A stretch of 64,000 nt of DNA from an uncultured Alphaproteobacteria bacterium (GTDB lineage: Bacteria > Pseudomonadota > Alphaproteobacteria > RF32 > CAG-239). Below are positions 6,346 through 24,440 of the stretch, one piece after another. Below the pieces are notes generated by a model. That model was not told where the DNA came from and searched no databases. It saw only the letters and a program-made list of their open reading frames with translations. The first letter of the stretch is position 1. Each line of letters opens with the position of its first letter. The stretch covers positions 778 to 64,777 of the forward strand of contig CALXPO010000024.1 in NCBI GenBank assembly GCA_944390315.1. Reading direction: 5' to 3'. Made by a program: the position numbers and the translations under genes.

Positions 6346-7344
6346 TTGTTCGAAAGGGTTAATATGAAAAAAAATTCGCTATGGCAAAAAATAAAAGATA
6401 AATTTTGTCACAAATTTATCAAATTGGCTATACTTTCACTTCCCATACTCGGAACAAACGCCGGCGAAAATACTTCACCGCTACCTTCCTCGGATATTGC
6501 CAAGAATAAAGCCTTAACAGAAAAGAGCGTCTCTCCTTCTCGGCAAAATAACTTTGTCCCCCTCAATTCCGATGAAATCATTGCTCAAAAACTTCTTTCC
6601 GAAAAACAAAATATTATCGGAAATTTTAATTTGAACGACAGAGAATTTTCTGCCGAAGATTTGTCACGAATACAACAATGTCCCCTAAACGAACAAATCA
6701 TTAAAACTGCAAAAAAAAATGCCAAACGAGGCGTCCCCGGCTCCGGACAACAAACATACTGTCTCGGCGCCGTTAAGGAATTTTATAGCGCCAACGGAAT
6801 AATTATCGACGCTCAACGTTTTGCATACCGCGCCGTTGATAGTTTGCAGACAAATTCAAACTTTACGGAAATAAACGTTAACATATCAGACTTTGCAAGC
6901 ATGCCTGACGGCGCTCTGATGGCATGGGAAAAAGGCACGACACGCTATGGACATATTGCCATGAAAATCGGCAATAGAGAATATTGCGACTATGTTTATA
7001 ACCTTCATACCAATAATCGCCGCGGAAGAACAGGACAACGTTATGGCAAAGCCCATGTTTTTCTGTTGAAACAAATGCCTCTTACCGAAGATTTTACTCG
7101 TAAATTGATTGCGGAAGGACGGCTGAAAGATGATGTCAGAAAAAGAATTGAAGCTAAAATCAAAACAGATGATATGTATGCCAGATTGAAATATCACCCG
7201 CTAAAAACTTTTGATGTTGCAGATTCTGCTTTATTTCAAAGAAATTCGGCGTCCGTCGAAAGTCCAACTTCGCATTCCCAAAAATATGCGGGAAACCAAT
7301 TTGATATAAACATGATTAAAAAAACAAAAGAGAAATCACGTTAA
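6346..7344 (+). CDS. Secreted hypothetical protein with a putative CHAP/NlpC-P60-like Cys...His motif pair (YCLGAV ... YGHIAMKIG). Candidate amidase or peptidase effector. The start may be Met7 at 6364.
   Basis: Signal-peptide-like N-terminus. Cys and His motifs resemble the CHAP catalytic dyad. Low GC. Confidence 0.45.
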   Translation: MFERVNMKKNSLWQKIKDKFCHKFIKLAILSLPILGTNAGENTSPLPSSDIAKNKALTEKSVSPSRQNNFVPLNSDEIIAQKLLSEKQNIIGNFNLNDREFSAEDLSRIQQCPLNEQIIKTAKKNAKRGVPGSGQQTYCLGAVKEFYSANGIIIDAQRFAYRAVDSLQTNSNFTEINVNISDFASMPDGALMAWEKGTTRYGHIAMKIGNREYCDYVYNLHTNNRRGRTGQRYGKAHVFLLKQMPLTEDFTRKLIAEGRLKDDVRKRIEAKIKTDDMYARLKYHPLKTFDVADSALFQRNSASVESPTSHSQKYAGNQFDINMIKKTKEKSR

Positions 7345-7436: not shown

Positions 7437-8780
7437 ATGGGAAAATTTTCAGCAGATAAAGATTATGCACCGCGCGTCTCAATGCATAGGGATTATGAAC
7501 AGCACAAAAAACGCGGCGAAGCCTTGAGTGCTCGAAAAAAACAAATTCTCAGTAAAAACAAACAGTCTGTCGATAAAAATCGTGTTACCGAACAAACCAA
7601 CATCAGTCAACCAACGCCAAGTAACGTCCCCTCTCTGACCGATGAACAAATTTATTCCAAATTAGAAGAATTAAGTGCAAAATTCAGAGCTACAAACGGT
7701 CAAACCGAAGAAGCCGAATTAAGAAAATTTGCCGAACAATACCACCTCAATTTACGCGTTACGTCCGCTGTTTCAAAAACAGACAAAAGTGCCATTGCTC
7801 GTATGGTCTTTAATGGTGGTGTTGAAAAACCAATGATCGGTTACTCTCCAAAATTCGCCGATATTGCAAATTATCCTTTTAAATATTCCGTAAATCCTAA
7901 AAATCCAGAGGATTACAATTTGGATGATTCTACAATTTGGCAGGCTATGGCCGAAGAACCAAGACTCTTTGAAATGAAAGATAAAATAAAATCGGCTCTC
8001 GCTAAAGCCGGCGTTCCAAAAGAGATTCTTCCCGATATGAATCTAAATGATTTTAAGTACCTCATGTTTAATTATTGCGGTGCTCAGAAAGGTCTCGGTT
8101 TTACGAAGCTGTTTCAGGCAAAAGATGAGAATGGAACACCTCTTACCTATAAAGACAGAAACGGAAGAGATGTTCCTATATGCACCAGCGCAAAACAAGA
8201 AAATGTAATGCGTTTTATGCGCGAAAATCCGCAATTTAAGACCATGCTTATGAAAATGCCCGGCATTAACAGAGCTTATGTCGATACCTTAACCAAAAAA
8301 ATGTCAGAAACGGGGCTGACTGATATGTCCAAAGAACTCGAGCGCCACCCGGAATGGGCAAACCAGCCCGCAATTGACGTACATCATATCATCAATATCA
8401 AAGATTGTCGTTTGCTGGAAGAACAAGGAAAATCTTATGCTGCCGTTAATAATTACGAAAATATGTGTATTGTCAGCAATGGTACTCTGCTCGATGCCGT
8501 TAGTCGCGCCAGAAAAATGTCTTCGGAAAACAAAAATACTTCCGTTCATGCCGGTATTCATACTGCCGACGTTGTCTTCAGCGATAAGACAGATAAAGGT
8601 GATATTAAGCGGACAATGGCACGCCTTGAACCCCAACCCGGAGTTAGATGCATGCTCGGATTTAATGACGATATGATTATTATGGATTCAAATTATCAAC
8701 AGCAAACTAATACTCAATCTAACAATAACAATTCGCAAATGTTTTTCATAAAGCAAAATAACGGAGCCGCAAGAGCATGA
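7437..8780 (+). CDS. Putative polymorphic-toxin-like protein. The C-terminal region carries an HNH/AHH-like nuclease motif (DVHHIINIKD ... NNYEN ... HAGIH).
   Basis: HH dyad, downstream Asn, then an HxxxH-like His, consistent with HNH-superfamily toxin domains. ATGA overlap with a downstream SUKH immunity gene. No match to a housekeeping family. Confidence 0.5.
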   Translation: MGKFSADKDYAPRVSMHRDYEQHKKRGEALSARKKQILSKNKQSVDKNRVTEQTNISQPTPSNVPSLTDEQIYSKLEELSAKFRATNGQTEEAELRKFAEQYHLNLRVTSAVSKTDKSAIARMVFNGGVEKPMIGYSPKFADIANYPFKYSVNPKNPEDYNLDDSTIWQAMAEEPRLFEMKDKIKSALAKAGVPKEILPDMNLNDFKYLMFNYCGAQKGLGFTKLFQAKDENGTPLTYKDRNGRDVPICTSAKQENVMRFMRENPQFKTMLMKMPGINRAYVDTLTKKMSETGLTDMSKELERHPEWANQPAIDVHHIINIKDCRLLEEQGKSYAAVNNYENMCIVSNGTLLDAVSRARKMSSENKNTSVHAGIHTADVVFSDKTDKGDIKRTMARLEPQPGVRCMLGFNDDMIIMDSNYQQQTNTQSNNNNSQMFFIKQNNGAARA

Positions 8781-9193
8781 CTATTCAGGAATTAATTGAT
8801 TACATCAAACAAAATGACGAGGTCGGATGCAATAAAGCCACTTCTGATGTAAAAATCGCCATCGGCGTTCTTAAATTAAAAGAAGCCGGTCTTCCCGAAC
8901 CCAGTACCGATTATTATAAGCTGTTGCGACAATTCAACGGTCTTTCAAATAACGGTGGCTATGTTATGGGAATTAATCCTGAAAGTACTTTTTTTCCAAA
9001 TCTTATTGACTATAATCTAAAAGAAAAAGAAAATCTTAATACGGGTGAGATTATTCTTGGCTATGATGATGATTATTGGCTAATTTATAACCAAAATAAT
9101 AAAAATTATAAAATTGTGGATCCTGATGACGGTTCCGAAGAAGGGACATCAAACAACTTAGCCGATATTATTCCTTACGTACTCCATATATGA
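8777..9193 (+). CDS. SMI1/KNR4 (SUKH-1) family protein, putative immunity protein for the upstream toxin.
   Basis: About 138 aa with YYKLLRQFNGLSNNGG...ILGYDDDYWLIY motifs characteristic of SUKH/SMI1-KNR4. Translationally coupled to the toxin gene. Confidence 0.6.
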   Translation: MTIQELIDYIKQNDEVGCNKATSDVKIAIGVLKLKEAGLPEPSTDYYKLLRQFNGLSNNGGYVMGINPESTFFPNLIDYNLKEKENLNTGEIILGYDDDYWLIYNQNNKNYKIVDPDDGSEEGTSNNLADIIPYVLHI

Positions 9194-9200
9194 AGGATAT

Positions 9201-9392
9201 TTGATTATGATGGAATATATAAAACGAAAACTTTGCAGATTAGAAGAAAAAAACGATTGGCGTAAAAAAATCCCGTTTCCGCATTATTATGAAGAAAACG
9301 GAAAAATCGTAAAAGAAACGGCTGACGGGAAAAAATATGTTGTTACTTTAGACGATGCTTATAATGAAGTGATTGTGGAGCAAATAAAATGA
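9201..9392 (+). CDS. Small 63-aa protein, putative epsilon-like antitoxin. ATGA overlap with the zeta-family gene.
   Basis: Position and size immediately upstream of the zeta-toxin-family gene, overlapping it. No sequence motif. Confidence 0.35.
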   Translation: MIMMEYIKRKLCRLEEKNDWRKKIPFPHYYEENGKIVKETADGKKYVVTLDDAYNEVIVEQIK

Positions 9393-10243
9393 GAATGAAA
9401 AAACCTTGGATGGTTGTGATTGCCGGACCAAACGGCGCAGGAAAATCGACTTTTTATGATTTGGTCATTAAAGACGATCCTTTAATGAAAAATGCTCCTT
9501 TTATCAATTTGGATAATATTGCAAGAGATATATCCGAACCTCAGGATAATCCAAACAACAACATGATTAGTGCCGGAAAAATTGCCTATCAAGAAGTGGA
9601 AAAACACATTATCGGTAAAAAAAGTTTTGTATATGAAACGACGTCGTCGGGAAAAGTACACTTGCGCTTTATGGATGAAGCCAAAAAAAGAGGTTTTAAA
9701 GTTGCAACAATATTTATAGGTCTTTCGACACCCATGTTATCTTATTTGCGTGTTAAAGACAGAGTAACAAAAGGCGGACATGATGTCCCGACAAAAGATT
9801 TAAGACGTCGATATCCTAAAATAATGAAAAACTTTCCCGATATGCTAAAACGCAGCGATATCGCCGCTGTTTTTGATAATTCGGGCGATAAACCTTTCAA
9901 ACTTATTTTTCTCATGGACGATAAGGCTTTTCGCATTTTTTATAAATATCCTAAATGGCTTGAGGAATCTATCAAAGAACGCAAAACCCGCAAAGACATG
10001 ATTATGGTAAGAAATTCTCCTTCTGTTCATCAACTCAGCGATGAACAATTGCGCGAAATTTCAAATCAAGCCCTTAGCGCCGTAGCCGGTCTTAATAACG
10101 AAGCTATTCCGAATATTGTCGGTTCGGCCGATACCATCCCCGAAGATGCACGTGAACTTCCTAATCTACTTGAAGAAAATCAGGAAAAAAGCCGTAATGC
10201 AGCTCAGTGGATAAAAAGAATTAAAGAAGAAAATCAAAAATAG
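9389..10243 (+). CDS. Zeta-toxin family P-loop kinase (UNAG-kinase-like) with a C-terminal extension.
   Basis: N-terminal Walker A (VIAGPNGAGKSTF) followed by an INLDNIARD-type motif, as in zeta/PezT-family proteins. Low-GC island context. Confidence 0.65.
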   Translation: MRMKKPWMVVIAGPNGAGKSTFYDLVIKDDPLMKNAPFINLDNIARDISEPQDNPNNNMISAGKIAYQEVEKHIIGKKSFVYETTSSGKVHLRFMDEAKKRGFKVATIFIGLSTPMLSYLRVKDRVTKGGHDVPTKDLRRRYPKIMKNFPDMLKRSDIAAVFDNSGDKPFKLIFLMDDKAFRIFYKYPKWLEESIKERKTRKDMIMVRNSPSVHQLSDEQLREISNQALSAVAGLNNEAIPNIVGSADTIPEDARELPNLLEENQEKSRNAAQWIKRIKEENQK

Positions 10244-10750
10244 ACATTTCAGCCAAACCGAGGGGTGCTGTACAACCAGTAACTGGTGACTTTACTCACT
10301 CAGTTGAATTTGTAAATTGTCAATCTGATTTCTATACAACCTGCAAATTTGTGACTTGACTAACCTTTCTGACAAGACACCGTATTGTTTTCTCAGCGCA
10401 TTGAACTTCAGCCTCAAATAAATACCCCATTTTGTGAGAACCAACTTGTAGAAATAACTTAAGATTATTCTTTCATTTTTTGTCGGTCTGCTCAATATAT
10501 GGCATAATTGCTGTTTTTTACAATATGATATGCATGATTGACTTAATGTGTATGAGATTTAACTTTCCGACGAAGCGGTTAATATGAATATATGTAACTT
10601 ATTTATCTTTTTGCTTTTAAGCAATAAACTTAAATTAAGTTGGTAGAATTTATCAATAACTGAACAAGCTATATCTTTTATCTTTCAGCATAAAACTTGG
10701 GTACATAATTTGAGTGCATAACTTAGAATTTTGAAATTGCTTACAAAATT

Positions 10751-24006: not shown

Positions 24007-24034
24007 TATAAACCTCCTAAAATAAAAAGCAGGC

Positions 24035-24440
24035 AGTCTGTAAGCCGGGTTCTGTATCGCAAAATATCGGTAAATATTTCAACGATTGATAGCCATTCAT
24101 CTTGGCGATATGTTACCACATCGCTCGGTGCGACCTACCTCTGGAGAGAAGTGGAAACGCTTCTTATGATTGGTAAAAACCAAACCTCCTAACTTGGTCT
24201 TGCTTCAAACAGGGTTTACCTTGCCAAAATCGTTGCCGATTTTGCGGTGAGCTCTTACCTCGCCTTTTCAACCTTACCGGAACTTGTCCGGCGGTAACTT
24301 TCTGCGGCACTTTCCCTTGGATTGCTCCAGCCGGACGTTATCCGGTGTTCTGTTTCCACGAAGCCCGGACTTTCCTCATCAATGGATTTTCCTTTCCTTG
24401 ACGCGGCTATCCGACCGCCTGCCCTTAGAAAGGTAATATT
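24035..24440 (-). ncRNA. rnpB: RNase P RNA (bacterial type A). Ends are approximate.
   Basis: Minus strand contains the universal GAGGAAAGUCCGGGC, GGGAAAGUGCC.CAGAAA and ACAGAACCCGGCUUA motifs in the correct order. P1 pairing between 5' GGCAGGCGG and 3' GACUGCCUGC. Confidence 0.8.

Follow-up and report, generated by a model that had tools for sequence, protein, structure and literature searches.

An overlapping gene pair in a gut alphaproteobacterium encodes a divergent Zeta_toxin-superfamily kinase and a 61-residue candidate inhibitor

In a 64-kb stretch of DNA from an uncultured alphaproteobacterium (contig CALXPO010000024.1; the whole stretch is hereafter called the window), two overlapping genes encode a 61-residue protein and a 284-residue P-loop kinase of the Zeta_toxin superfamily. 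Zeta toxins are textbook toxins of toxin–antitoxin (TA) systems, and kill by phosphorylating a cell-wall precursor. An earlier examination of this DNA from its letters alone (the sequence-only reading) had taken the pair for an epsilon/zeta (PezAT)-like module on a mobile island. From the analyses described here, we consider it probable that the two genes form a translationally coupled, TA-like module, in which an active phosphotransferase toxin similar to Rv0366c of Mycobacterium tuberculosis would be restrained by the 61-residue protein acting as a stoichiometric inhibitor. The kinase belongs to a known superfamily, and its relatives are already labelled zeta toxin family proteins by NCBI; what appears to be uncharacterised is the type of antitoxin and the three partner architectures found in this kinase branch. 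The features of the locus are the following.

9207–9392, + strand: small antitoxin-like gene, 61 residues from ATG 9207; an N-terminal helix (MMEYIKRKL...), then a β-domain.
9276–9389, + strand: β-domain of the small protein (residues 24–61, motif FPHYYEENGKIVKETADGKKYVVTLD...); the conserved portion, common to the partners of kinase homologues borne by plasmids and type IV secretion system (T4SS) loci.
9389–9392, + strand: ATGA start/stop overlap (kinase ATG 9389–9391, small-gene TGA 9390–9392).
9389–10243, + strand: 284-residue P-loop kinase of the Zeta_toxin superfamily, from a divergent Rv0366c-like ('predicted ABC-type ATPase') branch.
9425–9451, + strand: Walker A/P-loop GPNGAGKST (residues 13–21); G13, P14, N15, G16 and K19 invariant.
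9503–9529, + strand: INLDNIARD (residues 39–47); Asp42 invariant, the predicted catalytic base.
9635–9652, + strand: ETTSSG (residues 83–88); Glu83 invariant, TTSS at the position of GTXR in zeta.
9749–9781, + strand: lid segment RVKDRVTKGGH (residues 121–131); R121, R125, G129 and H131 invariant.
9989–10240, + strand: C-terminal extension (residues 201–284); 201–232 common to the gut alphaproteobacterial clade, 233–284 a fast-evolving tail.
7437–9193, + strand: separate neighbouring module; AHH-nuclease-like protein of 447 residues (7437–8780) and YrhA/SUKH-like immunity candidate of 138 residues (8777–9193).

The sequence-only reading had described a 63-residue open reading frame (ORF) overlapping the kinase gene by ATGA, and we found this overlap at the positions that it gave. 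The 63-residue form corresponds to an alternative start at TTG 9201 (9201–9392). We favour ATG 9207, because an AGGA ribosome-binding site is located at 9195–9198, 8 nucleotides (nt) 5′ of this codon, and because independent gene calls in relatives give a 61-residue product beginning MMEY. The 4-nt overlap is retained in the orthologues of loci L001, L004, L096, L098, L099 and L100, implying that translation of the two genes is likely to be coupled. There is no second copy of either gene in the window.

Conservation of the small ORF in relatives was a point on which the sequence-only reading had made its case depend. We observed orthologues with 51–59% identity, one of them in a different genomic context, and a comparison with an 80%-identical relative gave a non-synonymous divergence (pN) of 0.19 and a synonymous divergence (pS) of 0.66 for this gene. 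Therefore, the small ORF is a real gene under purifying selection. In at least four contexts it always lies directly upstream of the kinase gene and overlaps it. The kinase gene is itself under purifying selection, and the pairing is obligate.

The top Pfam family of the kinase was Zeta_toxin (PF06414; 40.1 bits, E 3.6e-10, residues 4–154 on profile positions 14–175 of 199), with a gathering cutoff of 22.3 bits; the family membership proposed earlier is thus borne out. The remaining family matches were either limited to the P-loop or under cutoff. In these family scans there was no match to shikimate (SKI) or gluconate kinase, and the housekeeping kinases considered (shikimate, gluconate and guanylate kinase) gave only P-loop-limited matches far under their cutoffs, so no such family scores higher than Zeta_toxin. 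A direct phmmer search of the kinase against PDB sequences and the PADLOC defence models also returned P-loop-limited matches only, and no literature was found under the name COG4185. A search of 5.8 billion proteins yielded 1258 homologues; with this number, and with purifying selection on the small ORF, the pair is far from a chance finding. The close ones (45–99% identity, 231–320 residues) are from uncultured gut Alphaproteobacteria; the distant ones (34–44% identity, 170–205 residues) are from many phyla and are named 'zeta toxin family protein', 'AAA family ATPase' or 'predicted ABC-type ATPase'.

We compared the kinase, by profile–profile alignment, with a canonical zeta toxin encoded at locus L010 (Campylobacteraceae), which scores 148 bits on the same PF06414 model. 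The motifs GPNGAGKST and INLDNIARD had been recognised in the sequence-only reading and are present at residues 13–21 and 39–47. The former aligned with GQPGSGKSS of canonical zeta and the latter placed D42 on the Asp of its GDDFRK segment; K19, E83 and R125 also have their counterparts. In terms of the characterised proteins, Asp42 is equivalent to zeta Asp67 and PezT Asp66, E83 to zeta E116, R125 to zeta Arg158, and H131 to zeta Arg171 or Rv0366c His122. The role of zeta Asp67 has been described (PMC3062530). In an alignment of 49 homologues, the residues marked as invariant in the feature list are without exception retained, as are N164 and S165. The predicted catalytic apparatus, comprising Walker A K19/S20, Asp42, Glu83, Arg125 and His131, is complete.

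One motif of canonical zeta is absent. Its EGTFR was aligned to ETTSS of the window kinase, so that TTSS replaces GTFR, and GTXR is the motif by which zeta and PezT bind UDP-N-acetylglucosamine (UDP-GlcNAc or UNAG; Tandon et al., PMC6362051). Rv0366c also has no GTXR and retains 9-GPNGAGKS-16, Asp36, Glu75, Arg116 and His122 (PMC6362051). At these published positions, G9–S16, D36, E75, R116 and H122 agree in spacing with G13–S20, D42, E83, R125 and H131 of the window kinase. From this agreement, and from the ParD_like pairing that Rv0366c shares with homologues of the window kinase (see below), we infer that the kinase belongs to a divergent branch containing Rv0366c. The pair Rv0367c/Rv0366c was flagged by TASmania as a possible new ParD_like–Zeta_toxin TA family and validated by toxicity and rescue (PMC6504116), and the toxicity of Rv0366c and its rescue by the upstream Rv0367c have been reported in two independent studies (PMC6362051, PMC6504116).

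The sequence and a structural model set the small protein apart from epsilon, PezA and ParD-like antitoxins. Scans against Pfam, NCBIfam and PADLOC assigned it to no family, ParD_like included, and a ParD-like hidden Markov model (HMM) found nothing across the window. In the AlphaFold2 (AF2) model, a helix (residues 2–14) is followed by strands at 26–30, 33–37, 43–48 and 54–60, that is, a four-stranded β-meander. Foldseek searches against the PDB gave a best E of 0.46, and the matches were single propeller blades. Streptococcal epsilon antitoxins are three-helix bundles (PMC5923241). The absent family match, the β-rich model and the poor PDB match ruled out a homologue of epsilon or PezA. Hence, the antitoxin-first, overlapping layout on which the epsilon/zeta comparison was founded stands, but the small protein is not epsilon/PezA-like and GTXR is missing from the kinase.

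We surveyed the pairing in 80 kinase loci from GTDB species representatives. An identifiable small partner was present in 61 of them, in three architectures: a ParD_like (PF11903) antitoxin directly upstream (14/80 loci), a different small partner directly downstream (45/80, an in-frame fusion in 2), and a β-domain partner upstream (2/80). The downstream partner (…AALRRAA..AR…TGTPVVV.DGKIV.E) aligned to the β-domain profile over 22 columns (hhalign probability 81%, E 1.2e-5). Homology of the β-domain to the C-termini of ParD-like antitoxins was left unproven (hhalign probability 9–13%). In a rough neighbour-joining (NJ) tree without bootstrap, the kinases clustered by partner type, the window clade standing beside the type-B and ParD-associated clades. 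Kinase homologues are present on 636 of the 72,556 plasmids of PLSDB, versus 4 of 50,697 phage records.

Downstream-type partners fused in frame to the kinase C-terminus were seen in metagenome-assembled genomes (MAGs) of Dehalococcoidia and Latescibacterota (L032 3962–4621, L051 3971–4624). Pairs of ParD_like and kinase genes occurred in MAGs of Proteobacteria, Verrucomicrobia, Planctomycetota, Acidobacteria, Rokubacteria and Myxococcota (L017, L023, L034, L039, L044, L047, L050, L057 and others). According to a 2023 review, such a non-canonical pairing is apparently confined to Actinobacteria (PMC10532202). The 2023 survey of Zeta_toxin homologues used E ≤ 1e-10, a threshold narrowly missed by the window kinase; it listed many 'orphan' toxins, ParD_like being the only cluster tied to a characterised non-canonical antitoxin (PMC10532202).

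Relatives of the β-domain were found on mobile elements. A profile search with the window clade only (1.84 billion representatives) gave 29 clusters for the small protein, and at least 354 clusters make up the combined family once the type-B sequences are added. All members are 'hypothetical' and without a Pfam domain, with the sole exception of protein P0241. P25, Y28 and G41 are (nearly) invariant across type-A and type-B partners. A distant kinase homologue in Glomeribacter (L008) has a relaxase and KfrB as neighbours, and in a Campylobacteraceae (L010) and an Endomicrobium (L011) the kinase pair is located between VirB4 and TrbL, beside Fic. Each of these three kinases is preceded by an overlapping ORF of 77–83 residues ending GRPIYYCDD..FIREWPDGRRELISVD, which resembles FPHYYEENGKIVKETADGKKYVVTLD of the window. 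An HMM of the window clade alone, run against 12,143 ORFs of 91 loci, matched the Glomeribacter partner (E 7e-4); the next-best, weak matches were likewise ORFs directly upstream of kinases, and a second round reached E 1e-10 to 1e-13. The same partner type adjoins kinase homologues on Piscirickettsia and Cupriavidus plasmids. A tblastn search of plasmids with the 61-residue protein found nothing, and the link to plasmid partners required profiles.

P0241 combines in one protein a type-B copy of the β-domain and the antitoxin domain VbhA (PF18495, E 3.8e-11). This fusion is the best, though indirect, sign that the β-domain itself could neutralise. P0241 (113 residues) is carried by small Mob/Rep plasmids (L101 957–1298, L102 4001–4342, L103 2448–2789), where it sits just 3′ of a TraD-like gene on contigs that encode neither a kinase nor a Fic protein; such an orphan fusion may be a portable double antidote. 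We also observed tandem zeta-type modules, in which a canonical zeta pair (a small ORF plus a zeta toxin of 263–300 residues) is immediately followed by a second, divergent kinase pair, in the Campylobacteraceae T4SS locus (L010 1690–3591) and on a Fusobacterium plasmid (L093 1158–3166). The Fusobacterium partner is a different, all-helical protein of 57 residues.

The sequence-only reading had noted an unusual C-terminal extension of about 80 residues. It is real, and amounts to ∼84 residues beyond the family core of 170–205 residues. From the alignment, residues ∼201–232 are common to the 231-residue relatives and ∼233–284 are confined to the closest orthologues. The dN/dS values are ∼0.09 and ∼0.26, respectively, versus ∼0.04 for the kinase core. 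The AF2 model has a pLDDT (its per-residue confidence score) of 44–81 in this part, with predicted helices at 218–233 and 260–283. The tail ends (...AAQWIKRIKEENQK) in a conserved amphipathic helix that keeps a conserved Trp (…AQWIKRIKEENQK). No recognisable domain was found in the extension by Pfam/family scan. The C-terminal additions of other family members are different: some homologues of 307–347 residues carry a KfrB domain there (PF18790; P0105–P0107, P0116), and L008 encodes a separate KfrB protein beside its kinase pair, which suggests a recurring link of the kinase to plasmid Kfr functions.

Next to the kinase pair lies the AHH module, and the two had been interpreted as stacked selfish modules on a mobile or addiction island. 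This interpretation did not survive. No tRNA, integrase or insertion sequence (IS) was found near the kinase pair, and there are no tRNA genes in the 64 kb. The GC content of the locus is 34–40%, versus a local background of 35–44%. The flanks are of housekeeping type: MdoG/MdoH-like genes, CorC and DUF1189 on one side, and a bPH_2 protein, Fe-ADH, an extracytoplasmic function (ECF) sigma factor, an FtsK-like gene and the Mla transporter on the other. Relatives (L001-3, L007, L095-97) keep all four genes, from the AHH-like toxin through the immunity candidate and the small gene to the kinase, in synteny at 67–80% protein identity and with saturated synonymous sites (pS 0.65–0.78). In this comparison the kinase core has a dN/dS of ∼0.04, the AHH protein 0.06 and the small gene 0.14. 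The absence of mobility genes and tRNA, the normal GC, the flanks and the synteny at saturated synonymous sites together rule out such an island.

The two modules are also separable. The small gene begins 13 nt downstream of the AHH/immunity module, and in L098 (∼52% identity) only the small gene and the kinase are found between these flanks. The AHH pair is missing there (L098 3619–3819 is the corresponding position), and a spacer of 200 nt in L098 hints that the kinase pair may have a promoter of its own. Therefore, the kinase pair and the AHH module are independent neighbours at this locus. Three further lineages have the pair in unrelated places, one following ksgA, one close to a PHP-domain gene and one flanked by xseA and dnaG, and the AHH module is absent from these as well. 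By this comparative evidence, the adjacency to the AHH pair is a lineage-specific gain or loss and not a shared island, and the kinase pair behaves as an autonomous two-gene module, occasionally relocated over deep time and stably inherited in the lineage of the window. A functional four-gene unit would have been implied if the 137-residue gene upstream of the pair in L100 were the same immunity gene as 8777–9193, but it is not (E 0.033).

The AHH-like protein scored 22.0 bits, marginally below its cutoff of 22.3 (VHH motif region 299–377), and its YrhA/SUKH-like neighbour 46 bits, below a cutoff of 55; the two are plausibly a toxin–immunity pair. Directly upstream of the AHH-like gene is a 332-residue ORF (6346–7344) without Pfam/NCBIfam match, and ORFs of 322–338 residues are located at the matching position in L001, L007, L095 and L096. 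Downstream of the kinase stop, an AT-rich spacer of ∼500 nt (10244–10750) precedes the convergent bPH_2 gene. L095 has this spacer too, whereas L001 and L096 have equivalent gaps of only 131 and 73 nt, respectively. The window spacer contains a 67-residue minus-strand ORF (10292–10495), and Rfam and tRNA scans of it gave no match. The sole Rfam match at gathering level in the window is a class A RNase P RNA (24025–24422, − strand, 288 bits).

This pattern of inheritance bears on a first alternative, that the kinase has been domesticated for a host-beneficial regulatory or metabolic phosphorylation, with the small protein as its regulatory subunit and no poison–antidote relation, or no longer one. 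The very strong purifying selection with synteny at saturated synonymous divergence, the presence of the pair in many related gut MAG lineages, the housekeeping flanks without mobility genes, a candidate antitoxin devoid of a DNA-binding domain, and a conserved C-terminal extension that suggests an added interaction are all consistent with it. Some points weigh against a TA-like module. Deep vertical conservation in a small genome is atypical of a purely selfish chromosomal TA system, and such long-term conservation may point to a role that benefits the host or is not toxic; type II antitoxins typically have a DNA-binding domain, which the small protein lacks, and its model is of moderate confidence (pLDDT 73); and the link to Rv0366c is made by published residue positions and by the ParD_like pairing of homologues, not by direct alignment. 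On the other side, the pair is found in at least four unrelated chromosomal contexts and hence moves as a module, its relatives are enriched on plasmids and in T4SS loci, the nearest characterised relative (Rv0366c) is toxic, and one protein joins the β-domain to an established antitoxin domain. We regard domestication as unlikely.

A second alternative is that the kinase is a secreted or contact-delivered effector, exported through a C-terminal signal or adaptor against competitors, the small protein being its immunity factor. The pair adjoins the polymorphic-toxin-like AHH pair, type-B homologues lie inside T4SS clusters beside Fic proteins, the orphan VbhA–β-domain fusions on kinase-free mobilisable plasmids resemble protective immunity genes, and a conserved helix closes the C-terminal tail. 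However, no secretion system is encoded near the locus in the window, no domain for secretion or trafficking was recognised in the extension, and the pair occurs without the AHH pair both at the same locus and elsewhere. The order of the genes is also inhibitor-first here, and polymorphic toxin cassettes are usually toxin-first. Taken together, these points make an effector very improbable.

The fold of the kinase bears on two other alternatives, which concern its substrate. Its AF2 model has a mean pLDDT of 84 (>90 for residues 1–180). Foldseek against the PDB returned the kinase of Clostridium thermocellum Pnkp (4jt2/4gp7; E 2.3e-7, rmsd 3.5–3.7 Å, 165 columns), AvrRxo1 (4z8u; E 2.8e-7, TM 0.55), zeta (E 3.9e-7), and PezT (E 1e-6), four nearly tied matches, and also ng_ζ1 of Neisseria gonorrhoeae (6epg; E 8.6e-5). 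With a sequence profile, Pnkp1 (4xrp; E 1.6e-5) came ahead of PezT (E 1.8e-3) and was the best PDB profile match spanning the whole kinase domain. The modelled fold thus places the kinase in the clade of zeta, polynucleotide kinase (PNK) and AvrRxo1 without identifying its substrate.

Phosphorylation of UDP-GlcNAc, which the sequence-only reading had carried over from zeta, is not transferable to this kinase, since GTXR is replaced by TTSS and the fold is tied with those of polynucleotide kinase and AvrRxo1. A canonical epsilon/zeta (PezAT) system would phosphorylate the 3′-OH of UDP-GlcNAc and poison MurA, and its small protein would block the ATP site as an epsilon-type helical protein. The Pfam Zeta_toxin match, the antitoxin-first, overlapping gene order, and the presence of zeta and PezT among the top structural neighbours agree with this. 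However, the score of 40 bits against 148 for a true zeta toxin, the replaced UNAG-binding motif, a small protein that is predicted to be β-rich and has no epsilon/PezA similarity (best PDB E as given above), and PNK and AvrRxo1 fold matches that are equal or better leave a canonical system with very little probability. No better placed is a polynucleotide 5′-kinase acting in RNA/DNA end-healing or as an RNA-targeting toxin instead of on a small molecule: Pnkp1 and C. thermocellum Pnkp are the best whole-domain profile and Foldseek matches and the core is very basic (net charge +14), but no phosphatase, ligase or Hen1 partner exists in the protein or its neighbours, Pfam assigns Zeta_toxin and not a PNK family, Lys richness is expected at 36–40% genome GC, and the zeta, AvrRxo1 and PNK scores are essentially tied.

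If the pair is a TA-like module as we propose, then it may operate as follows. Asp42 would deprotonate a hydroxyl of the substrate sugar and the R125/H131 lid would stabilise the transition state of phosphoryl transfer, as in zeta and PezT. As GTXR is absent, the substrate would not be held in the way zeta holds UDP-GlcNAc; another nucleotide-containing metabolite, not UNAG, is the probable acceptor, through one of its sugar hydroxyls, and a 5′-OH nucleic-acid end is a less likely one. The small protein would be made first through translational coupling and would bind the kinase, expected to be toxic when free, via its conserved β-meander (PxYYEENG..KE..DG), while the helix at its N-terminus may cover the nucleotide site. 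Autorepression would not set the dosage, as the small protein is without a DNA-binding domain; the ATGA coupling and upstream read-through would. The module would descend from plasmid- and T4SS-associated pairs and be a long-fixed chromosomal resident in this gut alphaproteobacterial lineage.

On a wider and unlikely reading, a large zeta-like kinase branch with a non-UDP-GlcNAc substrate might have one universal inhibitor module, the helix plus β-hairpin (PxYY..G..KE..DG). This element would occur as an upstream gene of its own, as an appendage of ParD-like repressors, or downstream of the kinase as a separate or fused gene. The T4SS kinases would then be transferred toxins, the orphan VbhA–β fusions of mobilisable plasmids portable antidotes, and the window copy, with its additional C-terminal part, a domesticated descendant retained for a host function in streamlined gut Alphaproteobacteria.

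The locus belongs to a widespread branch, found on the 636 PLSDB plasmids and in many phyla, that is without the UNAG motif and is associated with unrelated, unannotated small partners. Identification of its substrate would widen the known target range of kinase toxins. A candidate minimal inhibitor of 61 residues without a DNA-binding domain is a convenient structural handle on neutralisation in this branch. The strict vertical retention of the pair in small gut alphaproteobacterial genomes calls the 'selfish island' reading into question, and makes the locus a test case for TA domestication.

Compared with known systems, the best-superposing structures are the PNK domains (C. thermocellum Pnkp, Capnocytophaga Pnkp1, T4 PNK), with a core of ∼165 residues at an rmsd of 3.4–3.8 Å; unlike the window kinase, they work with phosphatase/ligase modules, either in the same protein or as partners, and have no small inhibitor partner. 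AvrRxo1–Arc1 of Xanthomonas is TA-like, and AvrRxo1, a NAD 3′-kinase and type III secretion system (T3SS) effector, is a top structural neighbour of the window kinase and an example of a zeta-superfamily kinase acting on a nucleotide cofactor and not on UNAG. However, it is much larger and carries a T3SS signal, its Arc1 is encoded downstream, and its identity to the window kinase is 13–15%. Within the zeta family, ng_ε1/ng_ζ1 of N. gonorrhoeae is the precedent for an altered substrate range, a C-terminal add-on and a non-homologous antitoxin. It differs in that ng_ζ1 has 401 residues, an OB-fold C-terminal domain and a rewired topology, and ng_ε1 binds as an extended polypeptide; the system has no sequence similarity to the small protein of the window or to the tail of its kinase. 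VbhA, the antitoxin of the Fic toxin VbhT of Bartonella, is connected to the small protein through P0241, where its domain is joined to the type-B β-domain; it neutralises Fic AMP-transferases and not kinases, and the small protein itself has no VbhA domain.

Streptococcal epsilon/zeta and PezA/PezT, whose kinases are UDP-GlcNAc 3′-kinases, share with the window the Pfam family, the P-loop kinase fold, the antitoxin-first bicistron and the equivalents of the Walker A Lys, the catalytic Asp, the Glu and Arg158. They differ from it in having GTXR, an antitoxin that is a three-helix bundle and not a β-meander, and a helix–turn–helix (HTH) or omega-type repressor. Rv0367c/Rv0366c of M. tuberculosis ('PezAT-Mtb') differs in its antitoxin, the 61-residue window protein having no ribbon–helix–helix (RHH)/ParD_like (PF11903) domain, and in the ∼84-residue extension borne by the window kinase, which is also placed by the NJ tree in a sister clade to the ParD-associated kinases. 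Nevertheless, by the published positions, both kinases have GPNGAGKS, the Asp, the Glu and Arg-x5-His, both are without GTXR on a short core of ∼190–200 residues, and in both systems the antitoxin is upstream, as is the ParD_like antitoxin in the 14 of 80 loci of window-kinase homologues that carry one.

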